DNA of 61,566 nt from Chloroflexota bacterium (lineage in GTDB: Bacteria > Chloroflexota > Anaerolineae > Aggregatilineales > UBA2796): contig JBDTVG010000179.1 in the NCBI GenBank assembly GCA_040007395.1, positions 1-61,566 on the forward strand. Reading direction: 5' to 3'. The notes beneath the pieces were generated by a model, which did not search any database, was not told where the DNA came from, and worked only from the letters and a program-made list of their open reading frames with translations. Positions 12,664-42,824 of the stretch are shown here, in pieces (the stretch's first letter is position 1; each line of letters opens with the position of its first letter). Position numbers and translations under genes: made by a program.

Positions 12664-12735
12664 ACGGGGTGTAGATCAGTGGTAGATCGCTGCGTTTGGG
12701 ACGCAGAGGCCGCCGGTTCGAGTCTGGCCACCCCG
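12664..12735 (+). tRNA. tRNA-Pro (anticodon TGG).
   Basis: Acceptor CGGGGTG/CACCCCG, anticodon stem CTGCG/CGCAG with loop TTTGGGA, T-loop GGTTCGAGTCTGG. Confidence 0.8.
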
Positions 12736-12741
12736 ACTATA

Positions 12742-12814
12742 GGCGGCTGTAATTCAGTGGTAGAATGCTTGCCTTCCAAGCAAGACGTCACGGGTTCGAA
12801 TCCCGTCAGCCGCT
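12742..12814 (+). tRNA. tRNA-Gly (anticodon TCC).
   Basis: Acceptor GCGGCTG/CAGCCGC, anticodon stem CTTGC/GCAAG with loop CTTCCAA, T-loop GGTTCGAATCCCG. Confidence 0.8.
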
Positions 12815-12820
12815 TTTAGA

Positions 12821-12896
12821 GGGCCCATAGCTCAGCGGTTAGAGCAGCCGGCTCATAACCGGTCGGTCGCAGGTTCGAATCCTGCTGGGCCCACCA
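12821..12896 (+). tRNA. tRNA with CAT anticodon (elongator Met or Ile-lysidine), with encoded CCA.
   Basis: Acceptor GGGCCCA/TGGGCCC, anticodon loop CTCATAA, T-loop GGTTCGAATCCTG, 3-prime ACCA. Confidence 0.8.
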
Positions 12897-16031: not shown

Positions 16032-18770
16032 ATGACCTTCATGGACCAGTGGAGTGCAGAGCTTCCCGGCTCCCTCGCTGCCTGCCGCAAGGCGATTCAG
16101 GCGGCGGGCAAAAGCGCACAAGGTATCGATCCCAAATATGGTGTATTCGCCGCTGGACTGCTCTGGCCCGTGCGTGAGGCAGGCGCAGAAGATGACCAAC
16201 GCGAGGCCGTGCGCGAGATCTGCGGCGGCAAAGACGAGGCCAAACCGCTGCTGACTGCCATTCGCAATTGGTCGGATTATGTTGTGGCAGCGCGTGAACT
16301 TTCCGAGTCGACGAAGGGCAATCTACTGCTACAAATCGCGCTGGAAAAAGTGATCACACACTTTCAGGACGCGCTGGTTGCCGCCGAGTTCATGACCATC
16401 GACATTCGCGACAGCACCATACAGGGCGCGATTGTAAACATCGGCGGCAAGCAATATTTCTACGGCGATGTGGTGATCAATATCGTGCAAGAAGCAGTGA
16501 TGACCTGCCCACCACCCCCCGAAGACCCTGCCCAATTCGGCGGACGCGATACGGTATTGACCGATCTGTGCGATCAGCTTAAGCGTGGCGAGGTGACGGC
16601 GATCACGGCGGTGCATGGCTTGGGCGGGATCGGCAAAACGACACTGGCCCGCCGCCTCGCCAATGTGCTGCACCATGAAAAGACATTTCGGGCGGTGCTA
16701 TGGGCGAGTGTGACACGCAGCCCCGATCCGCTGAGTATTTTGCAGGTCTGGGCGAAGCACGGCAATCCTAACTATGCGCTGCCCGATGCCAAACCGGATC
16801 AGATCGCCTTGCAAGTCAAGGGATTGCTCGAAACCGCGATTGCCCAAACGTGCGAACACTGCGAACCGGATCGCGTGCTGGTGGTGCTGGATGATGTGTG
16901 GGATGACGCGGAGGGCAAAGGCAAAGCCGCCGCTCGACTGCTGCAAGCTGCCGCGCCGACTAACTCCACGATCTTGATCACGACCCGTTCGCAGAATCTG
17001 GCTATCGATCTGCACGCCAAACAGCCCTATGCGCTGGACCGCATGGCTGCCGAGGACGGGCTGGCGATGCTGCTGACCTATGACGATCTCAAAGGGCTGC
17101 CCCACGATCCCTTGAAGGCGCTGGTGATGGCGCTCGGTGGACACCCGCTGGCGCTCGATCTGGCAGTGCGGCGCGTTCAGAAGGCGGAAAATAAGGCCGA
17201 TGCGTTGACGGCGCATACTACGCTTTATCAGAAAGGATTGCTAGCAGGTGAAGGCTTCGGCGGACTGAAACTCGATCAGGGGCCAGATCGCGAAGACAAC
17301 CTGACGCTGGTGCTGTCGTACAGCTACGACGACCTGCCCGACCCCGATCAGGCGCATTTCCGGGCATTGGGGATGCTGCCGCCCGATGTGCCGTTTGACC
17401 GGACGATTCTGGCGGCGCTGTGGGAAGTCCCGCCTGAGGCAGTGATCGACTCGTGCGATACGCTGCGGCTGCTCTCGCTGCTCCAGCCCGATCCCGTTAG
17501 CGGGGAGGGTTGGTATCGCCAGCACCCGCTGCTGCGAAGCCGTGCGCTGGATCTGCTGAAAGGCGCGGCTGAGACGGACGCAGTATTCGCCCGCTACGCA
17601 GATCGGGTGATTGAGATTGCCGAGGGCTTTTATCGGCTGCCGCCGGAACAATGGGCCGAACTGTCGGCCTACCTACCGCATGTTCACGCTGTTGGCAGTG
17701 GCTTGGTCAAGGCGTTCAGCCCAGAGACACTGGATGATGCGCAATTGAGCCGCGCCCAACGCTTCGCCCTGAAGACCAGCCGCTATCTCGCCAACCGCCG
17801 CGAAGTGCACCAGATCGACTGGTTGGAGATGGGGCTAACTGCCAGCCGCCAGTTGCACGATGTGAAAAACGAATCCTATTTCTGTAACGATCTGGGTTTG
17901 GTCTACTCGGCGCTGGGGGAGAAGCGGCGGGCGCTGGACTTCTACGAGCAAGCCTTGCCGCTGTATCAGGCGGTGGGCGATCGCGGCGGGGAAGCCACCA
18001 CCCTCAACAACATTGGTTTGGTCTACTCCGCGCTGGGCGAGAAGCGGCGGGCGCTGGACTTCTACGAGCAAGCCTTGCCGCTGTATCAGGCGGTGGGCGA
18101 TCGCGGCGGGGAAGCCGTTACCTGTTTCAATATCGGCATGGTTTATCGCGCATTGGGCGATCTGGATCAGGCTATTGACTATGTAGCCCGCTGCGTTGAA
18201 CTCGATGAACAAGTCGAACACCCCGATCTGGAAAGTGATCGGCGGGCGTTGGAACAGTTGAAGCGCGAACGTGACGGTCAGCCGGAGCCGACAGTAGGCC
18301 AAACCCCAGAGGAAGTTATGAAAATGATAACTAACCTCTACCGCCAGCGTGGGCCGGACGCAGTACGCACGCTGCTCAAGCAGTCCGATGTAGCAGACGA
18401 AACTATCGAAGCGCTGCTCGCGCAGTTAGCCGCCGCTGGCACGCAGGCTGCGCCGAGTCAGCCTGTGCAGCCGCCCTCGACCCTGCCCGATGAAACGATC
18501 AATATGTTGGCAGGCAATACATTTGCCGTCAAAACCAGTGCGCCGGATAAGCTGGACAATTGGCGCACAAAATTGCAGAGTATCCGCGCCGATTTCGCTG
18601 CCAAAGGGGCCGACTGGCAGCTCGAAGTAGATTTTGTCGATGCGCTGCTGGCGGTGTTGGCGGATCAGCCCGCCGCGTTACCGGATGGCAACCCCTATCA
18701 ATCTGTTGTGCAGCAGGTGATCGCAGCCATTGAACAGTTTAGCAGTAATAGCAATCCACAAGGAGAATGA
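16032..18770 (+). CDS. STAND NTPase of the NB-ARC type with C-terminal TPR repeats and an N-terminal region of about 190 aa with no recognised fold.
   Basis: P-loop GLGGIGKTTLARRL, Walker B VLVVLDDVWD, NB-ARC-like GxP (GGHPLALDL), then repeated TPR units (LGLVYSALGEKRRALDFYEQALPLYQAVGDRGGEA). Confidence 0.85.
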   Translation: MTFMDQWSAELPGSLAACRKAIQAAGKSAQGIDPKYGVFAAGLLWPVREAGAEDDQREAVREICGGKDEAKPLLTAIRNWSDYVVAARELSESTKGNLLLQIALEKVITHFQDALVAAEFMTIDIRDSTIQGAIVNIGGKQYFYGDVVINIVQEAVMTCPPPPEDPAQFGGRDTVLTDLCDQLKRGEVTAITAVHGLGGIGKTTLARRLANVLHHEKTFRAVLWASVTRSPDPLSILQVWAKHGNPNYALPDAKPDQIALQVKGLLETAIAQTCEHCEPDRVLVVLDDVWDDAEGKGKAAARLLQAAAPTNSTILITTRSQNLAIDLHAKQPYALDRMAAEDGLAMLLTYDDLKGLPHDPLKALVMALGGHPLALDLAVRRVQKAENKADALTAHTTLYQKGLLAGEGFGGLKLDQGPDREDNLTLVLSYSYDDLPDPDQAHFRALGMLPPDVPFDRTILAALWEVPPEAVIDSCDTLRLLSLLQPDPVSGEGWYRQHPLLRSRALDLLKGAAETDAVFARYADRVIEIAEGFYRLPPEQWAELSAYLPHVHAVGSGLVKAFSPETLDDAQLSRAQRFALKTSRYLANRREVHQIDWLEMGLTASRQLHDVKNESYFCNDLGLVYSALGEKRRALDFYEQALPLYQAVGDRGGEATTLNNIGLVYSALGEKRRALDFYEQALPLYQAVGDRGGEAVTCFNIGMVYRALGDLDQAIDYVARCVELDEQVEHPDLESDRRALEQLKRERDGQPEPTVGQTPEEVMKMITNLYRQRGPDAVRTLLKQSDVADETIEALLAQLAAAGTQAAPSQPVQPPSTLPDETINMLAGNTFAVKTSAPDKLDNWRTKLQSIRADFAAKGADWQLEVDFVDALLAVLADQPAALPDGNPYQSVVQQVIAAIEQFSSNSNPQGE
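17881..18120 (+). repeat. Near-perfect tandem duplication (2 x about 120 bp) inside the STAND gene that duplicates one TPR unit.
   Basis: tggtctactc(g/c)gcgctggg(g/c)gagaagcggcgggcgctggacttctacgagcaagccttgccgctgtatcaggcggtgggcgatcgcggcggggaagcc appears twice in tandem. Confidence 0.8.
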
Positions 18771-19193: not shown

Positions 19194-19920
19194 GCACGCG
19201 GAGCATCGATTCTAAAATACAGATCAAATTTTGTTGGATGTGAGCGACTCGATGCAGATTTCACCGGCGCACGTCCTTTGCTTATCCGACAAGGTTGTTT
19301 TCTACGAATACTGCCGCGAATCTAACACGCCGCGCAGCCCTGTAAAGCGCAAGCGCTTCGCTGTGGATTTTTGCTTTGGCTTGTGCCGCTGCGCTCATGC
19401 AAAAATCCTTGCGCCCTGACGGGTACAAGACTGCTGAGATCGGCGTGTTGCAGGGAGGGCAGTATTGTAGAACAACCTGTCGATAAGAGGACATGCATAC
19501 GGTATCTGCACGAGCCGCAGAACGCCCGAAAGGGCACTGCCGAAGCAGGCTAACGGATTAAACGTTAGTGGATACCTGACGGTGCATGGCGCAATTGAGA
19601 CTGCATACTCACCCCGCTGCCGGAGGCGACCCTGCCTGCGGCAGTGTTGGCGTTTAGGACGGTCGTGAACTGTACAGCACACGCTGCTGTACGCCGGATC
19701 GGCCTCTGAATGGGCTTGTGCCGCAGATACAGCCACTGTATCAGCACAAGTCTTTGCACGTTCAGGCCACGCTCCAGACGAACCGGGTGAGATAGACCAA
19801 CCACGCAAGACAATCCTCTGCATCAAGCCGGACTCCCCTTTACCCGGCTGTTGCCCCCACGCGGTTGGTTGCTACTTTCAGAACATTTTGTTTTACAGCC
19901 TCTCGAAAGGAGTCTCCCCT

Positions 19921-20835
19921 ATGTCCACTGAAAGACCGCTCGTGTATAGCTGCCGTCAGTATCGTCTCCTTATCGCGGGCAGCCGCCAAGCAACTGAGGC
20001 CATGCTTCACGCTGCGTATAAAGCAGTTGTGCGGGCCAGAGCCAACGGCTGGGCCATTCACGTCGGCGACGCACAAGGGGTCGATGCGGCAGTCGTCGCG
20101 GCGTGCAATGAACTCGGTGTGAACTATGTGTGCTTCGGATTGGGCAGTGCTCCCCGCAATTCACAGGTTAGCGGCAGTGTCACCGGGCGCTACTGGCGAG
20201 TCGCGCCTGATAAGGCGAAAGACTACGCGGCACGGGATCGCGTCATGGTGGATTGCTCAGATCGCGGTCTGTTCATCTGGAACGGGCAGTCGAAAGGGAC
20301 GCTGGCAGGCCACACTTACATGCAGCAGTTGGGCAAACCGGTAGATCTGCTCACCTTTGGCGAGCAAGCGCAGGTCAAAGAGCAGGAAACCCAAGCGAAA
20401 TCACCTGACAAGCCATGTGTTCCTCACCCTGCCGTGGTCGAAGTTATCCTCGATACCACCCTCACGGACACTGCCCAGCAAGGCATCTTTGGCCTGCGGG
20501 CGCTAGATGCCACCGGGGCTGTCCTGTATCAGAAGCGCGTGGAAGTCGCGCATCTCGACACGACGACGGCTGACTATGCCAAACTGCAAGTGCTTATCAC
20601 GGCTCTGGACACGCTCAAAGGGCGACTGAAAGGCAGTGAGGCGGTCTACACCTTGCGCGTTGTGCAGTCCAGCAAAAATGTCGAGGGGTGGTTGGGTAAG
20701 CAGTTCAAGCGCAACATGCCGCAGGTCAAGGCACTGGGCAGCACCGCAGACGAGCTGCTGAAAGCATTTCCGTCTGTCGAGTGGGTCAAAATGCCCCGCG
20801 CCCAGATTGTGTCAGCTCTCTCAAAAATTCGCTAA
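19921..20835 (+). CDS. SLOG (DprA/LOG-like Rossmann) domain fused to a catalytically degenerate RNase H-like domain.
   Basis: SD aaggag 10 nt upstream. LIAGSR...GWAIHVGDAQGVDAAVVAA matches the DprA/SLOG signature (GSR...SGxAxGxD). The C-terminal half aligns to RNase HI (TTTADYAKLQVLITALDTLK against TTNNRMELMAAIVALEALK; VEGWLGKQFKRN against ITQWIHNWKKRG), but the E and two D catalytic positions are replaced. Confidence 0.55.
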   Translation: MSTERPLVYSCRQYRLLIAGSRQATEAMLHAAYKAVVRARANGWAIHVGDAQGVDAAVVAACNELGVNYVCFGLGSAPRNSQVSGSVTGRYWRVAPDKAKDYAARDRVMVDCSDRGLFIWNGQSKGTLAGHTYMQQLGKPVDLLTFGEQAQVKEQETQAKSPDKPCVPHPAVVEVILDTTLTDTAQQGIFGLRALDATGAVLYQKRVEVAHLDTTTADYAKLQVLITALDTLKGRLKGSEAVYTLRVVQSSKNVEGWLGKQFKRNMPQVKALGSTADELLKAFPSVEWVKMPRAQIVSALSKIR

Positions 20836-21985: not shown

Positions 21986-22630
21986 ATGATGACGCAATCG
22001 GTGAAGTCCTATACGAACATTCCCGCCAAAGTCTACGAGCATTACAACACGCGGTACAACAACTATACCTACCGTCTGTTTGAAGCGAAGCTGCTCAAGC
22101 TCATTGCCCATAGCCCAGCGTATGGTGGTCATGCTTTTGCCCATACCACGCTCAATCTCCTGATCGATGCCAGTTTGGAGCGTTCCGGTGCTACCTTTTA
22201 CGCTGGCGCCGAAGTCAGCCTGATGCAGCTTATCCGCCCCATAAGTGCGGATCTGGTGGCGCTGGCTCGCCAACACCTAGAAAACTTCGCGCCATCGACC
22301 CGACCAGAACGCCCTCAATCCGAAACCGATTACGCCCTCTATGAAATCCTCTATGCCCAAGAGAGTGTCGAGTTGGCAGTCTGCCGGACAAGTGAGGTGC
22401 ATTCGTGGCGGGGACGGGTGGCTTACGCTTGGGTGAGCGCAGCCTTGTCGCTGCTGCACGCCGCGGCGGCAGTGCTGGTCGAGAGCCATTACGACAGCTA
22501 TCCGCTTGAGAAGCTGGACCAAGCCATGAACTCGCTGCGAAGCGCTGCGCTCGAAGGTCAGGCTCAGCATTTCGCCTTCGCTGCGGACTTTGTGACGTGG
22601 ATGCGCCAGTTGGTTAAAGCACGAGATTAG
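21986..22630 (+). CDS. Hypothetical alpha-helical protein (214 aa).
   Basis: Good SD (gaggag) before ATGATG. No recognisable domain. Confidence 0.45.
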   Translation: MMTQSVKSYTNIPAKVYEHYNTRYNNYTYRLFEAKLLKLIAHSPAYGGHAFAHTTLNLLIDASLERSGATFYAGAEVSLMQLIRPISADLVALARQHLENFAPSTRPERPQSETDYALYEILYAQESVELAVCRTSEVHSWRGRVAYAWVSAALSLLHAAAAVLVESHYDSYPLEKLDQAMNSLRSAALEGQAQHFAFAADFVTWMRQLVKARD

Positions 22631-22689
22631 TCCCTATCGCAGTGGGGTCAGCGTGACCCCGCTGTTTGTTCAGTGAAAGGAAGCGTTCT

Positions 22690-23139
22690 ATGACGACTAT
22701 TTCTCCCAAGAAAAGTACAAAGTCGAAGCTACCACCCCCGTCGACTATTCTGACGATAACCCTCAATCCCGACGGCACAGGGACACTCCTCACCAAACGC
22801 GGTGAGCTGGCCTGTGTCAACAGTTTTACTTACCACGACCTGAAAGGCATCCTGAACGCCATTCAACAAGGTGCGGCTCGATTGGTCGAGGTTGAGCAGA
22901 ACCCACCGCCTGCGTTATTTGAAGCCTCGCCTGTTCCCGCCACAACTTCAGTCACCGACGTTGACACTACGGCAGGTGACGACGAAGGTGCTGAAACCGC
23001 TAGCGCCGATAACCCAGCGGACTCCGAAGCACAAGACGCATCCAGTGAAACACCAACTTCCGCCGTACTGGCTACCGAGGGCGATCCGCTGATTCGTGTA
23101 GCTCCTCCGGTCAATTCTATCCAAATGTCCTTACTGTAG
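22690..23139 (+). CDS. Hypothetical protein with an acidic low-complexity C-terminal half.
   Basis: SD aaggaag precedes the ATG at 22690. The N-terminal 70 aa look structured; the C-terminus is D/E/T/A-rich. Confidence 0.4.
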   Translation: MTTISPKKSTKSKLPPPSTILTITLNPDGTGTLLTKRGELACVNSFTYHDLKGILNAIQQGAARLVEVEQNPPPALFEASPVPATTSVTDVDTTAGDDEGAETASADNPADSEAQDASSETPTSAVLATEGDPLIRVAPPVNSIQMSLL

Positions 23140-23161: not shown

Positions 23162-23452
23162 ATGTCTGACCAGACGATAAATTCTCAACCTGAAGCTACT
23201 GAGACAAATGCAGAACCGCAGCTGTCCACACCGGATAATGCAACCACTGCGGCCCAACCCAGCCACGTTATCTTCAAAATTGGTGCGAATCGTATTGTGG
23301 CAGACGAGGCAACCGCCAAATTGTCGCCAGAACAGGCTCGCACGTTCTTGAAAGCCACTTATCCAGAAGTGGTCAATGCTACCGTCCGTGAGCGTATTGA
23401 GGGCGATACCAAAATCGTCGAATTTCTCCCGCAGCCGGGACGCAAAGGCTAA
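23162..23452 (+). CDS. Small protein (96 aa). A disordered N-terminus is followed by a compact domain of about 60 aa. Candidate ubiquitin-like (beta-grasp) partner of the downstream E2/E1-like genes.
   Basis: VIFKIGANRIVADEATAKLSPEQARTFLKATYPEVVNATVRERIEGDTKIVEFLPQPGRKG has a beta-grasp-like alternation. It ends GRKG rather than GG. Inference only. Confidence 0.3.
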   Translation: MSDQTINSQPEATETNAEPQLSTPDNATTAAQPSHVIFKIGANRIVADEATAKLSPEQARTFLKATYPEVVNATVRERIEGDTKIVEFLPQPGRKG

Positions 23453-23489
23453 GTATTATGTTCACGGGCATCACAAGTTGTAACTTAAA

Positions 23490-23826
23490 CCATAAAACTT
23501 CCGTTTGGAAGCATTATGGTTCCAAAGTGCATGGAAGCGTTATGGTTCTAACCCGATGCAAAAAGGGCGGGATTTGAGGCACACTGCGCCGAAATCTGGC
23601 GATCCCACAATACCCTCGGAGTAGAGCCAAAGTAGATGCTGCTCCACCACTTTGGCTCTACTAGATAACTCCCGCCTATCAATTTTAGGAGGCTTTATGC
23701 TTCAAAATCCCACTTTAGGAAGTTTTATGCTTCCAGAAAGGATGGCAAACCCTTGCCAAAACGTTTCCAACGACCATTTTTAGGAAGCTTTATGCTTCCA
23801 AGAGAGGAGATTTTATGCTTCAAGTC
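23490..23826 (+). repeat. Array of six copies of an 18-20-bp palindromic motif (T)AGGAAGCTTTATGCTTCCA and the variant GGAAGCATTATGGTTCC. The last copy contains the start codon of the next gene.
   Basis: Copies at about 23507, 23533, 23687, 23717, 23782 and 23806, plus an inverted half-copy at 23490. Each copy reads as GGAAGC-N5-GCTTCC and also looks like SD (AGGAGG/AGGAAG) plus ATGCTTC. Confidence 0.6.
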
Positions 23827-24075
23827 ACAACAAGTTTAGAACTTGCCGATTGCCTGAGAGAGATCATCCCTGTGGAGCTACAAGGGGTGGAACTGCTCAA
23901 GCAATTCCGCCATAACACCGGGGCATGGTTTCCTCAGGTTCCTGCGGCGATTATCATCGAAGCCACTACCCAGATGATCGCCTATACCAAAGACTGCGCC
24001 GCCGCAGTCTGGAAACTACAGGTACTGCCGCCGACGACGCTGGCTACACTGCCTTGCAGGGAGTTTTGTCTATGA
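23815..24075 (+). CDS. Hypothetical protein (86 aa), first gene of the E2/E1 operon.
   Basis: Its ATG is embedded in the last repeat copy. Its stop overlaps the next start (ATGA). Confidence 0.4.
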   Translation: MLQVTTSLELADCLREIIPVELQGVELLKQFRHNTGAWFPQVPAAIIIEATTQMIAYTKDCAAAVWKLQVLPPTTLATLPCREFCL

Positions 24076-24929
24076 ACACATTACTGGCGGCACAAGCCTT
24101 GCTGGGAAAGGCGTTGTTGGCAGATCCCCGATTAGCGCTGGCTCAGGCCGCCGCTTGGCTGGACCCATCAAACATCCTCACGCATCCCAGTGACAGCAGT
24201 GACGAGGCTTTTGACGAAGCTGTGAACGAGATCACCTGGGCTTTGCACCTCTGCCGGAAGTTATTTCCAGAGGTATACGCTGGGGCCTCACAGTTGGTCT
24301 GGCAAGGGGCAAATGAGCAGACAATAGATAACTTCCTCTTGGACGGCATCAATGCCCACCTCGTGATGAAACTGGACGCGCTTGAAGAAATACCAGGTGG
24401 TGTGCCGGTGGAGATGCTGGGAGTCTCGTTCTACGAAGACGACTTTTTCGAAAACTATCCCCAACTCGTCGCTATCCTCACCGATTTCGGTATCCAGCCA
24501 GATTGCACCGAGACTGATATCTGGCGGGCTGGCGAATTAGCGAACACGTTATACGCCAGCGTCGAGCGACAATCTGGCACCACTTACCATCACCTCTGCT
24601 CACTGCTCAGTTGGCTGTTTGCCAGCAGTGGCAATACCTGTTTAGATATGACGACAGAGGAGTTTTGGGAGTCAGGCATTGCCCTGTTGGAGTGGCACGC
24701 AGAAAACGTTGAGGCGATGAATGCCATGGCGACCGAAGCAATGTCTATCTTTGACGAGGCCCAAGCCGGGTTGCAGGTGCTTCAGACTGATAGCGAACTC
24801 CGTCAGGTTTTCCAGCATAACCTTCATAAATTGCTCAATGCTTCGGCTCAGTCGGGTCGAAAGAAAGGAACATCCTCCAATGACCGTACTAGGCACACTC
24901 AGCGCTTTCAATGGCCTGAACGCCCTTGA
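24072..24929 (+). CDS. Hypothetical alpha-helical protein (about 286 aa), translationally coupled to its neighbours.
   Basis: ATGA overlap with the upstream gene. No JAB, ParB or other motif recognised. Confidence 0.45.
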   Translation: MNTLLAAQALLGKALLADPRLALAQAAAWLDPSNILTHPSDSSDEAFDEAVNEITWALHLCRKLFPEVYAGASQLVWQGANEQTIDNFLLDGINAHLVMKLDALEEIPGGVPVEMLGVSFYEDDFFENYPQLVAILTDFGIQPDCTETDIWRAGELANTLYASVERQSGTTYHHLCSLLSWLFASSGNTCLDMTTEEFWESGIALLEWHAENVEAMNAMATEAMSIFDEAQAGLQVLQTDSELRQVFQHNLHKLLNASAQSGRKKGTSSNDRTRHTQRFQWPERP

Positions 24930-25617
24930 AGCGGCAGTCCAAGAACTGCCGCACCTCACCTTGAATTTCTATTCGTATGGAATCCTTATGCGCCGTCGGC
25001 TAGAAAATGGCGGTGAAACTGAATACCCCGTCAGTCCAGAGCAGCTAGCGACGGCCCTCTCTGCCAAAGTGCGTTTTGAGACAGGACTGCTGTCCAGCAA
25101 TACCCTCTATGTTGCCACGGAAGGCATCCAAAAGCTTATCGTGGACTATCGCAAACCGCAGCAGACGGCCCTCTTTTTGGATGGCTCAGAAACATCCGTC
25201 CGGGTGCCACTGCCAGGATTGGTCATGATCCGGGTCACGAGCGCCAACGATAACCCGCGCTATGGAGTCTATGCGGTCAAACGCCGTCCGACAACGCTTG
25301 ACATGCCTCTGTTCCTAGCACCACTGCCGAACATGGATAGCCATTCCGTGTGTTGGGGGTCCGTCAAAAAAGTCTCGCCGGAGGGATTAGCCAATTCCAC
25401 ACTCGATGAAGATTGGACGCTGCTCTTGGGCAGTATATTTACCAGTCACAGCGTCCATGGGAAGAGCAAGAGTCACCCCGCTGACATTCGCCAGAAACTC
25501 ATCAATGTAGAAAAAGGTGGGGCGCGTCGGTATCCCACCGGTGATCTGGTAAAACTCGACTTTACACTGTCCGATGTTATCCGGAAGGTGCAGCATGACT
25601 CAAGTACACGCTTTTAA
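24879..25617 (+). CDS. Candidate prokaryotic E2-like (UBC-fold) protein.
   Basis: SD aaggaa 8 nt before the ATG at 24879. Beta-rich core (LPGLVMIRVT...YGVYAVKRR), then LAPLPNMDSHSVCWGSVKK, which resembles the HPN-x-CL active-site loop of E2s. Lies directly upstream of, and overlapping, the E1-like gene. Confidence 0.4.
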
Positions 25618-26368
25618 CCCCGACAATACCCTGACCGAGATCGTTCTGGTGGGGTTGGGCGGGACGGGAAGCCAGTGGGCGCGGACGATCTGCCGCATCG
25701 TCTGGGATCTCCGCCGACGGCGACAGCATGTGCCAACTATCCGCTTTGTAGACCCCGACAAAGTAGAAGCTAAAAATGTAGGTCGTCAGATGTTCACGCA
25801 AGCTGATATAGGCTACTACAAAGCGGAAGTCCTCGCCCGACGTTTCAATCTGGCCATGGGCCTGAACATTATCTGGCATAATGCACCATTCGATACTGAG
25901 CAACATACGCAGGGGCATGGCACAGTATTGTGTGGAGCCGTCGATAATCATTTAGCTCGCCTTGAGTTGTCGAAAGTCAAAGGGGTCTGGATTGACAGTG
26001 GCAATGCGGCTAGCAGTGGGCAGGTCATCATTGGCTGTTCGAGCGATAAGTCAGAGGTGCTTCGCAGCATCGAGTCAGGCCGATTCAGCCGTCTGCCCAA
26101 CGCGGCATTAGTCTTTCCAGCACTGCTGGAACCAGAGCCAGAACCTGTGCCTACGCCGACCCTCGACTTATCCTGCGCCGATCTGATGGAGAGCGGTGAA
26201 CAGCGGCTTTTGGTAAATGACCTGATGGGCCATGTGGCGGGAGAATATACTTTCAAGCTCTTGAACCGCCTACCCATCTATTCGTTTCTCACGTTCGTCG
26301 ATGCCGAGGGGTTAGCAATACGGAGTGTCCCCATTACGAAGGACGACCTGCTGGCCTACCTCAACTAA
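25595..26368 (+). CDS. ThiF/MoeB/E1-like adenylyltransferase (ubiquitin-activating-enzyme superfamily).
   Basis: Rossmann VLVGLGGTGSQ, the DPDKVEAKNVGRQ (D-x-D-x-v-e-x-sNL-nRQ) motif, and LCGAVDNHLARLEL. At about 258 aa it is the size of PRTRC-type ThiF proteins. Confidence 0.8.
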   Translation: MTQVHAFNPDNTLTEIVLVGLGGTGSQWARTICRIVWDLRRRRQHVPTIRFVDPDKVEAKNVGRQMFTQADIGYYKAEVLARRFNLAMGLNIIWHNAPFDTEQHTQGHGTVLCGAVDNHLARLELSKVKGVWIDSGNAASSGQVIIGCSSDKSEVLRSIESGRFSRLPNAALVFPALLEPEPEPVPTPTLDLSCADLMESGEQRLLVNDLMGHVAGEYTFKLLNRLPIYSFLTFVDAEGLAIRSVPITKDDLLAYLN

Positions 26369-27014
26369 CCTTGTCAGCATACACTTCACGCCAACCGGGA
26401 GAAAGCACTTCCAGGTCGGCAAGCTCAGCGCAGGCCGCTGGGTTCACTTCGCGGTCAGTCATGAGATTGTTCAGTCGAGCAATGGAAAACTGTGGATAAG
26501 GGCGTTCTAGCAGCTGGTAGGCATCGCCAGCTTGCACATAGCCGGTGTGCAGCACACGATGATACCAGCCACCCCAGCCTTTGGCCTCTACACGAGCCGT
26601 CAGATCCCTAATTCCCATCCGACGCGCCAGTTTCCAGCAGGGAAAACGGGGTTGAGCGACTTGCAAACGGGCTTCGCCTACCGCATAGATGTCTCCCAGG
26701 CAAACAGTCGCTTCGGTCACCTCGGAAACCGTGAAGTTCTCGCCAAAGCTTCCATAGGGAAGATCCACAACCGATAGTTCCTGTAGCCAAACTGGATAAT
26801 GGGCCGCACTATAAGCCAGCACAGCGCGGAACGGGCCACCGTGATTGTGTAAATCCTGCTGACCGTCGCCTGCCAGGTTGAGTGGATCAAGCCAGATGGG
26901 ACCACTAACGGACTGCTTGAAGATGCCCGACTGCCACGATTTGCGTGAAATGTGGTCTGGGCCATAGTCGGCGGGCAACCCAACTTGAACGGAAAGTAAG
27001 GTAGAGGGGGTCAA
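26361..27014 (-). CDS. MOSC domain protein (YiiM-like).
   Basis: GENFTVSEVTEATVCLGD...GEARLQV...RFPCWKL matches the MOSC beta-barrel signature with the conserved Cys. Confidence 0.7.
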   Translation of the reverse strand: MTPSTLLSVQVGLPADYGPDHISRKSWQSGIFKQSVSGPIWLDPLNLAGDGQQDLHNHGGPFRAVLAYSAAHYPVWLQELSVVDLPYGSFGENFTVSEVTEATVCLGDIYAVGEARLQVAQPRFPCWKLARRMGIRDLTARVEAKGWGGWYHRVLHTGYVQAGDAYQLLERPYPQFSIARLNNLMTDREVNPAACAELADLEVLSPGWREVYADKVS

Positions 27015-27212
27015 GATCTATACCTCAATTCTACAAGACGAAGCCGTAAAAGGTCGGCCTGTTCAAGTTCTCCATGGTGTGATGTTGCACCCCTTAGAAG
27101 GTGCAAGCTGACGCTTCCTTACGATTTCTACAAGCTAATTCTCTCGAAGTTGCCTGGCCTCTGTCAGGCATTTTTGATTCCGCTTCAAACCATGAATGGA
27201 GGTCAACTAAAG

Positions 27213-28841
27213 ATGCACGCGATTGCACTTTTTATCTATGGTACCGAAATGCGACAGGAGCTGTTGTGTATCAAATGCACCCAGCTTGTGCCGACTATCT
27301 TGCTGCGTTTGTTCGGCAACCATGCGTCGGACTTGACATCTTCCCACTCTCCCTACCAATACATCTACATACCAGGTGTGCAGTACCTTGTCCACAGTTT
27401 TCTAATCCTGCAAGTAACAGACGAAGAAAAGAAGGTCGTTGAGACTATCACATGGTCCTATCGAAGCTCGCCACAGACTTTTCTATGGCAGGATAGCCAC
27501 TGGTATGAATTTCCGTTTGGGGATGGCAGTCGAAGTGGTCATCGGGATTATCGTCTCGTCTCTGCTGCGACGTGCGCCACAAGTTATCCGACAGTTCCGG
27601 GTAGCGATGGCCCTTTCGTCATTCCATCGGCGCTGGGATCTGCGCCAAGTTCAGACATCACCATCCAACGCTCTGCCAGAGAAGGAAAGGGCAAGACTTG
27701 GTGGTGGATCGGCGGCAATACAAAACCGGTAAAGGATATTCTGGATGAGGCTGGAGCGCGCTGGTCGCGCCGCCGTCAACAATGGTATTACATTGGTGAA
27801 GTTTTGCCCGTTGCTATCCAAGCCCTTGGCGAAGCGAAACCATCACTTGCTGCTTCAGCCGACCTAGTCCAGTCGCGTTCGGATAGTGGGCTGTTTCCTA
27901 ACAACGGCGGAATCGCCATATCGCAGACGGTCAGTGAATCTCATCGAACTTCACTTGAGCTGTTGCCGGAAAATGCGAACACAACTTCCGCCCCAGAGTT
28001 GGTGCGTTATACAGCAACCCCTGTGGCTGCGATGCCAGCGGAATCCGGGTCGAATGAAGAAAGCGTGATGCGCTCGGTGCAGACCGACGATGTACAGGCA
28101 GCGCTCATCGCGCACATCCATGATTGGGAACGGGGTAAACCTATCCTCATTGATTTCGTGGGATCGCGCAACGCGATTAAACAACTCCTCGCCAAACCCT
28201 TCAACCCCGGCAATATAGGGCGGGGCGATGGGGTGGGATTCATCCTCGTCAATGGCAGCAGTTTCTCCAACTTCCGCTTGCCCGACCTGAATTACAAAGC
28301 AATCTCGGCGAGTCTCAAGAACCGGGCCATCGAAGGGCGCATTGTCTCTCTGGACGCGACTACTGCTGCTCCCAAGCAAGAGTGCTATGTCCTCGTGTCT
28401 GGGCCGATCCGCATTCCCGAAACAGACGATCCGGAAACCGTGGCCGCGATCTGGCAGCGCTATGTCCGTTATCGGCAAGCCCCCAATCGTCCAGAATTTG
28501 CCCGCTATGAACCCACAGCTTGGACAACAGACCTATACAACGTCTATCAAGCCCTGCGTGTGCGACTAGGACGGCCCCTGCATATCGGCTGGATGCCTTG
28601 GCTGTTCCAGCAAGTCGCTGACCAGCAGTTAACTTCTCCCAAACTCGGCTTGAGCGGAGTCATGGTGTGCAAGTATATCGGCGGCTACATCACGCCTAAA
28701 GCCGCTGGTGCCGTCGAGCAAGGTGCCTATCGGCTGACGTGTAGTGAGGTCAGTGAGCTATGGGGTGAGGTGATCATGGCCAATCCCCAGCGGGCGCAAG
28801 GAATTGTGTTCAAGTCTGATGAGAAAGGAGCCGTGTCATGA
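27213..28841 (+). CDS. Hypothetical protein (about 540 aa), translationally coupled to the methyltransferase-helicase gene. Contains a Trp-rich KGKTWWWIGG...ARWSRRRQQWYYIG segment.
   Basis: SD ggagg before the ATG at 27213; the ORF could start earlier (27150 or 27192). The stop overlaps the next ATG by 4 nt. Confidence 0.45.
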   Translation: MHAIALFIYGTEMRQELLCIKCTQLVPTILLRLFGNHASDLTSSHSPYQYIYIPGVQYLVHSFLILQVTDEEKKVVETITWSYRSSPQTFLWQDSHWYEFPFGDGSRSGHRDYRLVSAATCATSYPTVPGSDGPFVIPSALGSAPSSDITIQRSAREGKGKTWWWIGGNTKPVKDILDEAGARWSRRRQQWYYIGEVLPVAIQALGEAKPSLAASADLVQSRSDSGLFPNNGGIAISQTVSESHRTSLELLPENANTTSAPELVRYTATPVAAMPAESGSNEESVMRSVQTDDVQAALIAHIHDWERGKPILIDFVGSRNAIKQLLAKPFNPGNIGRGDGVGFILVNGSSFSNFRLPDLNYKAISASLKNRAIEGRIVSLDATTAAPKQECYVLVSGPIRIPETDDPETVAAIWQRYVRYRQAPNRPEFARYEPTAWTTDLYNVYQALRVRLGRPLHIGWMPWLFQQVADQQLTSPKLGLSGVMVCKYIGGYITPKAAGAVEQGAYRLTCSEVSELWGEVIMANPQRAQGIVFKSDEKGAVS

Positions 28842-31800
28842 GACGCGCTGCAATTGAAAAGATTGGCTACTACCCCATTCCTGATGCGATGATGCACTGG
28901 ATCGTCGCCCAATTGAGCATCGCCGCCGGGGCGACCATTTCGTTCATCGACCCGTGCATGGGCGAAGGGGCAGCACTGAAGATCCTCAAAGATCAGGTGA
29001 AAGCCCATAAGGCTGAAGCCCTAGTCTATGGCTGCGAAATCAGTCGCCAGCGCTATGCCACGGCGCTCCAAACGGTACTGAACGAGCGACGCGAGGGTAT
29101 CAGTCGGCTGGTCAGTGGTGCGGCAGAGTTTATCGACACCAGCAAGCATACGTTCTCGTTGCTGTACCTCAACCCACCCTTTGATGAACGTGGCAAGGAG
29201 CAAAACCGCTGGCTCGAATTGACCGAGGAGTGGCTGGTGCCGGGCGGCTGGTTGATTTTCATCACGACCGAGGACTCCGCCCTTCGACCCGACACGCAGC
29301 GCTTGCTGGATCGCTGCTACGAGCAGGTGGTGTGCTATCGCTATCCAGACGCACAGCGTCATTTCAAGGAAGTGGTTGTCTTTGCCAAGCGTCGGCAGGC
29401 GAATAAGCGTGAGGCAATCCGCTCCGTGATCTACACCGCTAGCAGCCTGGCGACCTTGACCCTGCAAGAACAGTTCAGCTTCGAGGTTCCTGCTAGTAAG
29501 GCTCCGCAGCGCTTCACGATGACGGTGCCGGATCTGGAAGACAGCCTGACTTGTCTCCACGAGATGGGCATCAGCACCACCGCGTTATGGACACGCCTCA
29601 CCCAGTCCGCTTCATTGTCCAGCAAATGGCAGCCTCTCCTTGAACTCGGCGATGGACACATTGCCAATCTCATCAGTTCCGGTGCCTTTGATGGAATGCC
29701 TATCGATGATCCTGACTTGGGTCGCTGCCTGATTACGGGCTACGGCACAAAAGAGAAGACCGAGCCAGTCGTCGAAGTCGATGAGGATGGCATCACCGAG
29801 AAAGAGACTGTCACTGAGATTGCGGTGGTGCATCTGGTGGTGATGAATATCGACACAGGTGAACTGCATAAGTTCAGCAGCCGCGATCCCGGCCGGATGG
29901 AGTCATTCATCCTGCGCCACCTACACACGCTCAAAGCGGCCATTGCCGATACCCTCAAACCTATCTTCGACCCTGAAACGATGTTGGATGCTTACCTGCC
30001 GTATGTGCCACATTTCAAAGCGCCCGGTGTGTTACCTGGTGCAACCCGGCTGCGACTGCACAATGGCGACAAACTGCGTGTGAAAGCGAAACACGATGGC
30101 TATTACTTGGCCCAGCGCGACGAGGGTGAGGCAGTTAAGGTACTCAAGTCTGAGGTGGCCCACCTTTACCAGAATATGCTACCGGCCCAAATCATCAAGG
30201 CCGCGGCGATGGCTTATGCCATGCAGCACACGACGACCAGCGTCATCGAAGTTGGTCAGATGGGTGTGGGCAAAACCAGTACGGGAATGCTGACGTTGTA
30301 CCTGTATCTGGCGAAACAGATCGAACGCGCCATGCTGCCTCTCAAAGACACCTTGCAAAAACTCGGTGAGTTGGAGAGCGATCTGCTTGAGGCACAGCGC
30401 ACAGGCCACCGCCAGCACGTCCGCAGCCTCAAGGAAGCGATCCGATTGACCGAGAAGACGCTGAAAGCGATGTTCAAGATCGTCGTGGTCTGTCCCGGTC
30501 ATCTGGTCAACAAGTGGGCACGGGAAGCGACCACTAACTTCTCCGAGATGCAGATCGGCGGTCAGAAGGCGACGGTCATTATTCCGGGTCGTGCGCCGCA
30601 CCGTGTGACACATTATGAGTTACTCGGCAGCCGTGTGGTTTGCCAGGACTGCGGCGCTGTGGCTGATATTAGCCTGTCCCGTGCAGAGATCTTGAAAGGT
30701 CTCAAGCTCAAGGACAAGCTGCTGCGGTTGAGCCGCCTGAAATGCAGCAATCCTGAGTGCGGACATTGGCTTATCCAGACTTACGAGGACTGTGCTGTTG
30801 AAGACATCGACAATGCTTTCGCGGCACCCGGCTTGACCATCTTGGTACTGTCCAAAGAGGATGCCAAACTCGGTGCCAACTGGGAGGCTGCATTCATCCC
30901 GAAGGCGATGCCGCTCTGGGATGAAGCAGGTCATCTCCAACGCAACGCGGAGGGTCGCCTTCAGACCTATACGGTCGCCCAATGCCCGGAATGCGGGGCG
31001 ATTGCCATGAACCGCAAAGGCGACGAAGCGTTGTCTGTCGAGCAGATCACCGACCCAGATAAGCGCAAGAAATACTACTGCAAAGGCACAGTGCAGCGGG
31101 TCAAGCGCGAAGGGGGCAAAGTCGTCATGGAAGCTCAAACTTTCTATGTGTGGCAGGGCCGCAAATATCAATCGCAGCATCTGCCCGAAGGGACTGATCC
31201 CCAGAAACTCGTTAAGGTGACTCGGATGGTGCCAGCAACCGTAACTGAACGCTGTGGCGCACCCCTGTTTACTTTCACCCGCTTGGGCAGCACAACCAAG
31301 CATTCTAAGATTAGTCCCAAGCCGCGCAACCGTTATGCGTCATGGACACGGGGTGAAGTGTATCCCAATCACGGATCGGCCCGGTGGGAGCTGGCGAAGG
31401 TCATCGCTCGGCAGCATCGTGGCGAGTATCTCCTTGTTATTGATGAATGCCATATGTTCAAGGCGCAAACGTCGATTCAAGGACTGGCAGTACAATGGCT
31501 CATCGAGAGTGCCACGCGCACCATTGCCCTGACGGGGACAATCTTTGGCGGCAAAGCCTCCAGTTTATTCTACCTGCTGTACCGACTCTCACCTCGGTTC
31601 CGCGAAACCTTTGGCTGGAAATCCGTCGAGCGCTTTGTGGATCTGTTTGGTGTCCATGAATACATCACCAAGCGAACCCGCGTAGACAGTGAAGGCACAC
31701 CCAGCGCCTACGGGGCGCATATTAAGAAAACTGAACGCACCGACGAAGGTAATGGGGTCGATCCGTCCATCGTGCGCTGGCTGCTAAGTATTGGGGTGTT

Positions 31801-33310
31801 CCTCACGCTGGACGACTTGGGGATTGAACTACCGGAGAAGCAAGAGCAGTTTCATTTCCTGACTCCGGAACTGGAACTGAAAGCAGGGTTGCATGGCCTA
31901 AGCCAAATCCGGCAGGAGGCTGCCAAGCTCGCCGCCCGCGGCGATTTTTCGCTGTTTTCGGCGTGGATGCAGGCGGCACTGGGCTGGAGTCTCTGCCCGG
32001 ATCAGGATGAGATCTATATGGCCCCTGAGCATCGTCAGAAGGTGGCGAAACTGCTCGTTGAGGGGAAAGTCGAAGAGGCTAGCCTCCATGAGAAACTGCA
32101 TAGCGACCTGTGGGCATCGGCGGTCCCGTTTACCCCGGAGCGTCCCGAAGGCAGGATTGTCCAAGAGATAGCCGATGCCTGCCTGAATGGTTGGCGCGAT
32201 TTGGGTGACCGGTCGGTGGTGTATGTATCCGGCGTAAAGCGGCCTGCCAACAAACACCTCTATCACGCGATGAAACGGCGCGGTCTCAAGCCGTTCATCC
32301 TAGCGACCCCCGGCGATATGGAAGTGGTTAAGTGGTGTGCGCCAGAGGACTTCGCCCGCTGCGATCTGGAAGACCGGGAAGCGGTGATCACCGAGGCGCT
32401 CGAACACAAAGACAGCAATGTCCTCATCGTCAATCCACCGCTGGTAGCCACTGGTCTGGATCTGATTGCCTTCAATCACCTGCATTTCTGTGGTGTGCCG
32501 ACCTACAGTGTCTACCTCTTCGAGCAGGCGATGTGTCGTCTACACCGTCCGGGCCAGCAAAAGAAGGTCACAATCCACTTCTGGGTCTACGGGTGGAATC
32601 CGACAGAGGGCAACGCCAAAGAGAACGAACTACAGGCGTTAGCCATGGCGGTCATGTCAGACAAAGTGCGGGCTTCGGCAGTTGTCTCCGGCAGTGTCGG
32701 CGCAGCGCTAGCCGCGCTTAACCAGACACAGGGCGACATCATGAATACCTTGCGTGAGTTGCTGCTCAGTGGCGAAGCCGACCAGATTACCGTGGCTGAG
32801 ACGAGCGACCAAGTGATTTTCAAAGAAGCGCTGCGCGTAAACCCACTCTATGCCAAAATCGAGGCACTCGTCGAGCAATACGATGATGCACGGCAACCTT
32901 TTGTCGAGGCAAGTGTACCGGAGCGATTTATGCCAATGACCCCTGTTATCTATCAGCCCGAACTGACTCCTGCGACGGCTGAACCACTGCTGGTCATTGC
33001 CGTAGAACCGGCTTCCCCATTGGAGCCTGATTGGAAAGGCGATCCCTTGCTGCTCCTGCTGGCGGATTTGGGCGGGAGTATCACGAATATCTCCAATACC
33101 GTGTTTGCTATCCAACTACAAAAGCCAGCGCGTTCGCCCAAAGTTAAGGCACCACGCCGCAAACGGCGTGTAAATCTATTGGATGCGCCTGACGACCTGC
33201 CAAAGCCTCCCCAAGTGCGCTGGCTGCCTGATCCTTGCCTAGATCCCATTCGTGAAACTACGCCCAACGGCACACCTTTGATGGAAGTCGTGCAGCTTGA
33301 GTTGTTTTAA
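28838..33310 (+). CDS. Giant fusion protein: N-terminal N6-adenine DNA methyltransferase plus a SNF2/DEAD-like helicase with inserted zinc ribbons. Typical of plasmid/ICE anti-restriction and transfer modules.
   Basis: MTase motif I FIDPCMGEGAAL and motif IV NPPF. Helicase DExH box LVIDECHMF and motifs V/VI (LIVNPPLVATGLDL; QAMCRLHRPGQ). CxxC pairs: CQDCGAV...CSNPECGH, CPECGAI...YYCKG. Confidence 0.85.
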   Translation: MRRAAIEKIGYYPIPDAMMHWIVAQLSIAAGATISFIDPCMGEGAALKILKDQVKAHKAEALVYGCEISRQRYATALQTVLNERREGISRLVSGAAEFIDTSKHTFSLLYLNPPFDERGKEQNRWLELTEEWLVPGGWLIFITTEDSALRPDTQRLLDRCYEQVVCYRYPDAQRHFKEVVVFAKRRQANKREAIRSVIYTASSLATLTLQEQFSFEVPASKAPQRFTMTVPDLEDSLTCLHEMGISTTALWTRLTQSASLSSKWQPLLELGDGHIANLISSGAFDGMPIDDPDLGRCLITGYGTKEKTEPVVEVDEDGITEKETVTEIAVVHLVVMNIDTGELHKFSSRDPGRMESFILRHLHTLKAAIADTLKPIFDPETMLDAYLPYVPHFKAPGVLPGATRLRLHNGDKLRVKAKHDGYYLAQRDEGEAVKVLKSEVAHLYQNMLPAQIIKAAAMAYAMQHTTTSVIEVGQMGVGKTSTGMLTLYLYLAKQIERAMLPLKDTLQKLGELESDLLEAQRTGHRQHVRSLKEAIRLTEKTLKAMFKIVVVCPGHLVNKWAREATTNFSEMQIGGQKATVIIPGRAPHRVTHYELLGSRVVCQDCGAVADISLSRAEILKGLKLKDKLLRLSRLKCSNPECGHWLIQTYEDCAVEDIDNAFAAPGLTILVLSKEDAKLGANWEAAFIPKAMPLWDEAGHLQRNAEGRLQTYTVAQCPECGAIAMNRKGDEALSVEQITDPDKRKKYYCKGTVQRVKREGGKVVMEAQTFYVWQGRKYQSQHLPEGTDPQKLVKVTRMVPATVTERCGAPLFTFTRLGSTTKHSKISPKPRNRYASWTRGEVYPNHGSARWELAKVIARQHRGEYLLVIDECHMFKAQTSIQGLAVQWLIESATRTIALTGTIFGGKASSLFYLLYRLSPRFRETFGWKSVERFVDLFGVHEYITKRTRVDSEGTPSAYGAHIKKTERTDEGNGVDPSIVRWLLSIGVFLTLDDLGIELPEKQEQFHFLTPELELKAGLHGLSQIRQEAAKLAARGDFSLFSAWMQAALGWSLCPDQDEIYMAPEHRQKVAKLLVEGKVEEASLHEKLHSDLWASAVPFTPERPEGRIVQEIADACLNGWRDLGDRSVVYVSGVKRPANKHLYHAMKRRGLKPFILATPGDMEVVKWCAPEDFARCDLEDREAVITEALEHKDSNVLIVNPPLVATGLDLIAFNHLHFCGVPTYSVYLFEQAMCRLHRPGQQKKVTIHFWVYGWNPTEGNAKENELQALAMAVMSDKVRASAVVSGSVGAALAALNQTQGDIMNTLRELLLSGEADQITVAETSDQVIFKEALRVNPLYAKIEALVEQYDDARQPFVEASVPERFMPMTPVIYQPELTPATAEPLLVIAVEPASPLEPDWKGDPLLLLLADLGGSITNISNTVFAIQLQKPARSPKVKAPRRKRRVNLLDAPDDLPKPPQVRWLPDPCLDPIRETTPNGTPLMEVVQLELF

Positions 33311-33332
33311 GGCAAGCCGCAAAAAGTGAAGC

Positions 33333-33370
33333 ACAGGATGTCATCGCACGATGACATCCTGTTTGTCGCA
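33333..33370 (+). terminator. Intrinsic terminator after the methyltransferase-helicase gene (caggatgtcatcg cac gatgacatcctg, then tttgtcgc).
   Basis: 13-bp perfect stem followed by a T-rich run. Confidence 0.5.
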
Positions 33371-33497
33371 ATTATCGACTTTCTACGCGCAAAACTTGTT
33401 TAATAGAACGTTTGTGCTATAATCTAGGTGAGAAACATCAGCCTTCCGTCGTAATGGTTGCATCAAACCGTAGCTATCTAGCACGAGGACACGCACG

Positions 33498-42670: not shown

Positions 42671-42824
42671 CCCCTAAACAAAGACATTTCCCATTCAAAA
42701 AAGCTTCTCTGTTATACACGGGAAAGGGCTTGAGCTATTATGTTCCTCAGGCGCTGCTAGTTCCCCTACTAGTCAAAGTTGCTTTTTCATCTAATTCTGA
42801 ACACTTACCTTGAGAAGGCTACTC

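Follow-up and report, generated by a model that had tools for sequence, protein, structure and literature searches.

Can a ubiquitin-like conjugation cassette of bacteria be complete without the JAB metalloprotease and the ParB protein of its family? The question is raised by contig JBDTVG010000179.1 of a Chloroflexota metagenome-assembled genome (MAG), which is 61,566 bp long and is called the window here. Six tightly packed open reading frames (ORFs) of the + strand, all intact in the ORF list of the window, lie at 22.6-26.4 kb. A first-pass annotation of the sequence had described an E1-like, an E2-like and a ubiquitin-like protein (Ubl) in a cassette on a mobile element, resembling the ParB-related/ThiF-related cassette (PRTRC; NCBIfam TIGR03734-03742). 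Family models, synteny with the PRTRC cassette of pLA4, a plasmid of Novosphingobium pentaromativorans, and comparative genomics uphold this description. The locus is probably a reduced PRTRC/type 6d Ubl conjugation cassette, located in the DNA-processing part of an integrated element, in which an E1-to-E2 relay would act with a ready-mature Ubl. The six genes are:

22690..23139, + strand: gene at the E position, 149 aa from the ATG (157 aa if the TTG at 22666 is used)
23162..23452, + strand: Ubl gene, Prok_Ub / PRTRC_C family, 96 aa
23815..24075, + strand: 86-aa partner gene, conserved across related loci, no family match
24072..24929, + strand: gene of a 285-aa all-alpha protein, with an ATGA overlap with the 86-aa gene
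24880..25617, + strand: E2-like gene, Prok-E2_D / PRTRC_B family, 245 aa from the ATG
25574..26368, + strand: E1-like ThiF-family adenylyltransferase gene, 264 aa; an alternative ATG at 25595 is possible

All of the ORFs described earlier are found in the ORF list at their coordinates and on their strand; the lengths of 246 and 286 aa had each been off by one (245 and 285 aa). The E1 gene overlaps the upstream E2-like gene by 44 nt, as had been noticed, and the ATGA overlap claimed among the small genes is seen between the 86-aa and 285-aa genes. A scan of a genome collection recovered 80 related loci, nearly all in MAGs of Anaerolineae or Aggregatilineales, which often hold several copies of the cassette each; the loci fetched for comparison carry names of the form L0xx. 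Homologues of every cassette gene number in the tens to hundreds and keep their order. Given these family matches and the homologues in the same order, the ORFs of the window are real genes and not chance reading frames. An Rfam search and promoter and terminator scans of 22.5-27.2 kb gave nothing above background.

Membership of the E1-like protein in the ThiF family is upheld by a match to PF00899 at 53 bits, above the gathering threshold, and the two motifs that had first drawn attention to it, VLVGLGGTGSQ and DPDKVEAKNVGRQ, are both present in the 264-aa protein. Its best NCBIfam match is PRTRC_ThiF (TIGR03736) at 114.1 bits, under the cutoff of 144.75 (the E1 of pLA4 scores 261.9), and the next-best matches are ThiS adenylyltransferases. 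An alignment of 70 clade members with 8 canonical or cyanobacterial E1s shows G27xGGxG32, D60, D62, N68, R71-Q72, K83, D124, R129 and S200-C201 to be invariant. The Ser200-Cys201 pair sits after the adenylation core, and Cys201 is a candidate thioester cysteine. Because an exact look-up of the 264-aa product gave no match, the gene has probably been called from a different start in the database, and the start at 25595 is a possible alternative. The E1 reading frame is broken in three relatives (L006, L046 and L085), which may be decayed copies or assembly errors.

The E2-like protein matches Prok-E2_D (PF14460) at 69 bits against a threshold of 25, and PRTRC_B (TIGR03737) at 48.5 bits, under the cutoff of 131.45. 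Its 245 residues are identical to the database entry 'MAG: Chloroflexota bacterium ABI947_19290' (P0001), and it belongs to the cassette in every one of the 80 genome loci that were recovered with it. Among 27 homologues of 53-77% identity, P149-L-P-N152, C159-W-G161 and H191 are invariant. Cys159, in the motif PLPN-x6-CWG, is a candidate catalytic cysteine. Judged from its sequence, the LPN-x6-C segment corresponds to the HPN...Cys signature of E2 enzymes, and the conserved H191 lies 32 residues downstream of Cys159. The E2-like assignment therefore holds, on the Prok-E2_D match and the invariant Cys, but not by way of the His-x-x-Cys loop that had been likened to the E2 active site. That likeness was spurious, since the His of DSHSVC varies and the signature is LPN-x6-C with a downstream His. 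In an AlphaFold2 model (pLDDT 83), PLPN...C comes directly after the last strand of a beta-meander. Neither Foldseek, run with this model against the PDB, nor a sequence search of the PDB using the E2 profile gave a match, and the structural support for a UBC-like fold is moderate.

The Ubl consists of a 35-aa low-complexity N-terminal extension followed by a core of ~60 aa that ends G93-R-K95-G96-stop. Searched alone, it reaches 19.9 bits with Prok_Ub (E = 6.3e-4; threshold 25) and 20.3 bits with PRTRC_C (TIGR03738; E = 4.6e-4; cutoff 45.95). Prok_Ub is matched by 36 of the 39 members of its family, and hhalign pairs the family profile over its whole length with the canonical and cyanobacterial Ubls (Prob 97%, E = 1.3e-10), the GxKG end being common to them. 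By these profile matches the 96-aa protein, previously proposed as a possible beta-grasp Ubl, is very likely a member of the Prok_Ub/PRTRC_C Ubl family; a PDB search with the Ubl profile gave no match. The first-pass annotation would have given up the cassette for an E2-like protein with no UBC-like fold or catalytic Cys beside a 96-aa protein that is not beta-grasp. What was found is an invariant Cys, a UBC-like model of moderate support, and very likely Prok_Ub membership.

G93, K95 and G96 are invariant within the Ubl family. Of 70 loci, 66 have a Ubl that stops after GRKG; in the remaining 4 it stops after GYKG or GKKG, so that all 70 end G-x-K-G-stop. The GRKG end had been regarded as divergent, a view that is not upheld: PRTRC_C of pLA4 (68 aa) ends GTKG-stop, and cyanobacterial relatives have an internal AGTKG. 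Since 70/70 loci and pLA4 end in this way, GxKG-stop is a hallmark of the Ubl family and not a deviation from Gly-Gly. In JAB-containing cyanobacterial cassettes (Anabaena, Gloeothece and Leptolyngbya plasmids), the internal AGTKG is followed by a C-terminal extension of ~80 aa, and such a Ubl-extension protein would be a precursor needing cleavage after Gly. These extended Ubl genes are located at:

L090, 3279-3713
L089, 3537-3947
L087, ~5285-5701

The absence of JAB and ParB genes nearby, first noticed by eye, was upheld by Pfam, profile and phmmer searches. Pfam scans of every ORF of at least 150 aa at 12.8-42 kb of the window found no JAB and no ParB/ParBc. Six-frame ORFs of at least 40 aa were searched for JAB with a hidden Markov model (HMM) of 7 PRTRC_A/MPN sequences, and for ParB by phmmer with the ParB of pLA4. 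Nothing better than E = 0.37 was found in the window, and neither JAB nor ParB was found in 82 related loci; the seven training sequences themselves were recovered by the JAB HMM at E below 1e-70. No plausible ORF of the window contains the HxH...SxxD motif. In 69 of 81 loci the two genes that would flank a JAB gene, E2 and E1, overlap and leave no room for it. Six loci of one sub-clade (L060, L066, L068, L069, L079 and L084) have an extra, unrelated gene at the JAB position, between the E2 and E1 genes; its product starts MGYDCY... and has neither JAB motifs nor a match to the HMM. An example is:

L068, 10638-11147: ~155-aa extra gene

A further cassette, annotated as PRTRC, is found on pSA70-3 of Shewanella putrefaciens (L091). 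It includes ParB, a Ubl ending KTKG-stop, an E2_D-like protein and ThiF, and no JAB is detectable in it. A gene with a BRCT domain lies within this cassette.

The reduced layout is not peculiar to the window. The comparison of gene neighbourhoods that had been proposed as a check was run, and among 60 loci with full flanks the Ubl gene is present in 59, the 86-aa gene in 54, the 285-aa gene in 59 and the E1 gene in 59, with 54 loci collinear. This collinearity, together with the invariant catalytic residues and Ubl end, suggests that the reduced layout represents a conserved lineage under purifying selection and not decay. The 86-aa and 285-aa genes accompany the E1/E2 pair in 54/60 and 59/60 of these loci. 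They had been suspected of being partner genes of the system not yet recognised as such; their constancy is confirmed, while the 285-aa protein turns out to be recognisable, as the alpha-helical protein known from operon type 6d. Thus, in the Chloroflexota lineage, the system can work as a conserved unit of five to six genes without JAB and without ParB, and the alpha-helical protein with its fusable 86-aa partner is a constant component of it.

The model of the 285-aa protein is confident and all-alpha (pLDDT 88, pTM 0.78). Its family has few members (314 representatives out of 1.84 billion), with ~30% identity within the clade, and a search with the single sequence gave only 4 matches. A profile of 161 sequences matches the gene preceding E2 in the JAB-containing cyanobacterial and Chlorohelix cassettes (hhalign Prob 96%, E = 4.7e-9, 187 columns), which identifies the protein as the alpha-helical protein of operon type 6d. 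No link to the proteobacterial PRTRC_F was detected: hhalign comparisons with the PRTRC_F of Polaromonas and with the 251-aa protein of pLA4 were not significant, and NCBIfam scans of ten distant members of the 285-aa family gave no PRTRC_F match.

The 86-aa gene, where present, always lies between the Ubl gene and the 285-aa gene, and its product has no match in the Pfam, NCBIfam or PADLOC models; the E-position and 285-aa proteins of the window likewise match no Pfam or NCBIfam family. In one genome the two proteins are naturally fused in frame (L059 8899-10068; P0149, 390 aa), which suggests that they work together as one functional unit. The 86-aa protein was also considered as a split-off extension of the cyanobacterial Ubl or as a relative of the 73-aa ORF of pLA4; neither was retained, as the hhalign values (E = 0.25 and 0.57) were not significant.

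In the window, the Ubl gene is split from the 86-aa gene by a spacer of 362 nt (23453-23814) that is found in this element only, the median spacing in relatives being 9 nt. An array at 23499..23824 holds six copies of the near-palindrome GGAAGCWTTATGSTTCC, the last of which overlaps the ribosome-binding site (RBS) and the ATG of the 86-aa gene. The motif has 7 matches against 0.04 expected by chance, all inside the spacer; it is absent from the 91 other loci, and the spacer has no Rfam match. The copies look as if the start of the 86-aa gene (RBS-ATG-CTT) had been duplicated.

At the front of the cassette, the E-position gene is located directly upstream of the Ubl gene in 49 of the 60 full-flank loci and occupies the place of PRTRC_E in pLA4. 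Its product has a small N-terminal domain, an acidic and Pro-rich disordered tail and the C-terminus IQMSLL-stop, an architecture that is kept in relatives. No sequence or profile similarity to PRTRC_E or to the cyanobacterial E-position proteins was detected.

The sequence features of an E1-E2 thioester relay all appear to be present: an exposed Gly on the Ubl, an ATP site and a Cys on E1, and a Cys on E2. In the proposed mechanism, the ThiF-type E1 would bind ATP and adenylate the free C-terminal Gly96 of the Ubl, which would then be handed as a thioester to Cys201 of E1, move to Cys159 of E2, and finally be attached to a lysine of a target protein. The 285-aa and 86-aa proteins would most likely form a specificity or adaptor (E3-like) module, or may be the substrate themselves. 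Without JAB, the conjugation might be irreversible, or it might be reversed by host factors. As the Ubl is translated already ending at its reactive Gly and needs no precursor processing, JAB may be dispensable, which would explain its absence. A rule can be proposed for the sampled lineages: every extended Ubl comes with JAB, and JAB is missing only beside a Ubl that is made in mature form. The rule rests on few JAB-containing loci, and pLA4 has JAB together with a mature Ubl.

Several points weigh against this reading of the locus. The case of pLA4, which keeps JAB with a Gly-ended Ubl, indicates that JAB is not only a processing enzyme (in pLA4 it presumably deconjugates), and its loss is thus not fully explained. 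The E1, E2 and Ubl of the window all score under the curated cutoffs of the NCBIfam PRTRC models. The model of the 285-aa protein matches no solved fold, and the role assigned to the 86/285-aa pair is a guess. Moreover, PRTRC/6d, common on conjugative plasmids and integrative elements, is the one classic bacterial E1-E2-Ubl operon family for which the papers searched gave no experimental work on any system.

The surroundings of the cassette bear on its role. It lies between a cluster of tRNA genes with a serine recombinase and a coupling protein of a type IV secretion system (T4SS), and the features concerned are:

12665-14581: tRNA-Pro/Gly/Met cluster and adjacent large serine recombinase
16032-18770: STAND NTPase, 912 aa, with NB-ARC and TPR repeats
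19888-20835: SLOG/DprA-like protein, adjoining the STAND NTPase gene
26361-27014, - strand: MOSC/YiiM-like gene, converging on the E1 gene and overlapping its stop by 8 nt
28838-33310: giant DUF6094-methyltransferase/SNF2 protein, 1490 aa
34847-36121, - strand: DUF488-N3a protein
38.7-40.9 kb: T4SS coupling protein

The 3' end of tRNA-Met overlaps the end of the large serine recombinase gene on the opposite strand, so that 12665-14581 is a likely integration junction. A search for att-type direct repeats that would delimit the element gave none, and no direct repeat at the far end matches this junction. A RepB-primase-like protein is also encoded by the element; no relaxase or VirB4 was recognised in the window. 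The location on a mobile element, as first annotated, is supported by the tRNA cluster with its recombinase, the T4SS coupling protein and the DUF6094-SNF2 protein. Since neither relaxase, VirB4 nor att repeats were recognised, mobility is deduced from this context.

In relatives, the conserved neighbourhood comprises a 560-aa protein, the giant methyltransferase-helicase, the primase-like protein, the cassette, a PAPS-reductase-like protein, a w07-like protein and SSB, with RNase H, integrases or Tn7 genes nearby. The block of the 563-aa protein, the giant methyltransferase-helicase and the RepB-primase-like protein (27150-34421) is downstream of the cassette in the window and upstream in most relatives. 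A 214-aa gene (21986-22630) shows the reverse placement, upstream here and downstream in most relatives. The gene order around the cassette of the window is therefore rearranged or circularly permuted. None of the 80 related loci has the MOSC gene, which is thus not part of the cassette.

Some other observations concern the same region. The STAND NTPase gene contains a 120-nt tandem duplication of 90% identity (17886-18125). DUF488-N3a proteins are encoded close to the cassette not only in the window but also in at least L001 (6419-6793), and a cluster of ~143-aa proteins takes the same relative position in 8 loci. The DUF488-N3a protein of the window was considered as a hidden ParB and rejected, as DUF488 is described as a domain fused to ParB folds and not as a ParB fold itself. 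At 42810-53936, in a stretch of lower GC immediately after the genes of the coupling protein and a response regulator, lies the gene of a 3708-aa protein that has RHS repeats and PD40 beta-propeller repeats.

Other bacterial E1/E2/Ubl operons are defence systems, and the cassette may be asked to be one as well, carried as cargo of the element and conjugating the Ubl to proteins of invading phages or plasmids in the manner of Bil, CBASS Cap2 or Bub. The STAND NB-ARC-TPR NTPase and the SLOG/DprA-like gene upstream in the window, and weak matches of E1 to the PADLOC Cap2 'E1-E2' and BilD models, agree with this. These matches, however, cover only the generic Rossmann segment of E1 (E 1e-7 to 1e-3), the other five cassette proteins match no defence model, and the STAND and SLOG genes are not conserved neighbours (1/80 and 19/80 loci). 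The PADLOC and NCBIfam models of the known defence Ubl systems (CBASS-II Cap2/3, Bil, 6A-MBL) give no more than partial, weak matches to the Rossmann segment of E1. In place of a variable defence island, the cassette keeps a fixed place among the giant methyltransferase-helicase, the primase-like protein, SSB and RNase H; on plasmids, it adjoins ParB, dnaN/dnaX, polymerases and giant helicases. No phage relatives were found in IMG/VR or the GenBank phage collection. The fixed place among DNA-processing genes, the lack of phage relatives and a PADLOC signal limited to generic E1 point to a role in establishment or replication of the element rather than to classical phage defence as cargo, and the defence explanation is unlikely.

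Sulfur transfer is a second alternative, and quite an improbable one. The E1 would activate the C-terminus of the Ubl to a thiocarboxylate, as with ThiS and MoaD, and the sulfur would serve the modification of nucleic acids or cofactors by neighbouring proteins. The E1 is indeed a minimal ThiF/MoeB-like protein of 264 aa with the ThiS adenylyltransferase matches given above. In 34 related loci, ~2.3 kb further downstream than the E2 gene, there is a PAPS-reductase/PP-loop (DndC-like) gene, and the MOSC-domain gene abuts the E1 stop codon in the window on the opposite strand. Yet the window has no PAPS-reductase gene, and no related locus has the MOSC gene. The presence of an E2-like protein with invariant Cys and His throughout the 80 loci does not fit a sulfur carrier, and the Ubl ends GRKG in the window, and G-x-K-G in general, not with the GG of ThiS and MoaD. 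Pfam and NCBIfam scans found no rhodanese or other sulfurtransferase domain on E1 or in the core operon.

A more specific proposal than a general role in the element is a replisome-directed tagging module: while the element establishes itself or replicates, Ubl, E1 and E2 would be brought to the beta-clamp of the host (DnaN), or to proteins bound to it, and would modify the clamp or these proteins. It is a long shot that rests on motif resemblance and gene neighbourhood. The E-position protein of the window ends QMSLL-stop (23122-23136) and the giant DUF6094-SNF2 protein QLELF-stop (33293-33307). In relatives, the former ends QLSLF, QLTMF or QAKLF (QLTLF, QLNLF and QITLF in three cyanobacterial ones), and the latter QL[AS]LF-stop in 49 related loci. 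These termini resemble QL[SD]LF, the bacterial beta-clamp-binding motif. The pattern Q-x-x-[LMIV]-[LFWMIV]-stop is found in the E-position protein of 19/54 loci as against 55/1440 other ORFs (Fisher p = 7e-13); 49 of those 55 fit the stricter Q[LMIV]x[LM][FLM], and all 49 are the giant helicase. An internal (D/E)(L/M)SLF is present in most of the other E-position proteins, and a plasmid polymerase in L004 ends KVQLSLF-stop. If true, such tagging would be a bacterial analogue of the ubiquitylation of PCNA.

That the cassette is a decaying remnant, stripped of JAB and ParB and no longer functional, is very improbable: two named PRTRC components are missing, a repeat-filled spacer of 362 nt interrupts the operon in this window only, and three related loci have frameshifted E1 genes, but all six ORFs of the window are intact, the reduced layout is collinear in 54/60 full-flank loci from many MAGs at only 30-60% identity with catalytic residues and Ubl terminus invariant, and a JAB-less PRTRC-type cassette is also found on the Shewanella plasmid.

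The reading as a reduced PRTRC/type 6d cassette can be set against the known systems one by one. The PRTRC cassette of pLA4 has the order ParB, E, C (68 aa), a 73-aa ORF, a 251-aa ORF, B (Prok-E2_D), A (DUF2016 and Prok-JAB) and ThiF, and that of Polaromonas the order F, B, A, ThiF. Position by position, the order of pLA4 is that of the window, which lacks the ParB at the front and the protein A between B and ThiF. The best NCBIfam match of the E1, E2 and Ubl of the window is each time the corresponding PRTRC model, the Ubl terminus is G-x-K-G-stop in both cassettes, and both lie on conjugative or mobile DNA. For PRTRC E and F, the window has positional equivalents without detectable sequence similarity.

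Operon type 6d was defined computationally as Ubl, JAB, E1, E2 and a novel alpha-helical protein (Iyer, Burroughs & Aravind 2006, Table 1; PMC1779556). In its E2 the classical His is missing but a His C-terminal to the Cys is absolutely conserved, and its alpha-helical protein is rapidly diverging (PMC1779556). The E2 of the window shows this trait, with LPN instead of HPN and with C159 and H191 invariant in 27 sequences. The 285-aa protein likewise has the traits of the alpha-helical protein: an all-alpha model, ~30% identity and a place next to E2. The JAB of type 6d, which has an N-terminal alpha+beta domain, is missing from the cassette, whereas the conserved 86-aa gene and the E-position gene are additional to the type 6d unit.

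The closest annotated relatives of the E1 and E2 of the window, at ~30-35% identity, belong to cyanobacterial and Chlorohelix plasmid cassettes, which are mostly on conjugative plasmids, beside replication and giant helicase genes. The nearest plasmid-borne relatives of the E2 come from cyanobacteria, on 42 plasmids of which 25 are typed as conjugative. In pANACY.02 of Anabaena cylindrica, the cassette encodes a 155-aa protein, the Ubl-extension protein, a 248-aa protein, E2_D, MPN and ThiF. On the Chlorohelix plasmid, an IS21 element lies upstream of the cassette, where the Ubl gene was sought. These plasmid cassettes retain an MPN/JAB gene between the E2 and E1 genes and the cassette of the window does not; the cyanobacterial Ubl is extended by ~80 aa after AGTKG, whereas that of the window ends with the Gly, and after it the 86-aa protein is encoded by a gene of its own.

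The bacterial Ubl families with experimental characterisation are CBASS type II, Bil and Bub (Corbett-lab preprints). The general logic is common to Bil, CBASS type II Cap2/Cap3, Bub and the cassette of the window: an adenylating enzyme of E1 type works with an E2-like enzyme that has a Cys, on a substrate that is beta-grasp or has a C-terminal Gly. They are nevertheless different families, and the cassette matches them only in the generic Rossmann segment of E1. The Bil, CBASS type II and Bub systems include a dedicated peptidase and act in phage defence, whereas the cassette of the window has no peptidase and lies among maintenance genes of a mobile element. The JAB-less cassette offers a minimal construct for reconstitution and a minimal model for the PRTRC/6d family. 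The family has been on record from computational work since 2006; this reduced variant of it, which has neither JAB nor ParB, is widespread in Chloroflexota of the Anaerolineae type.

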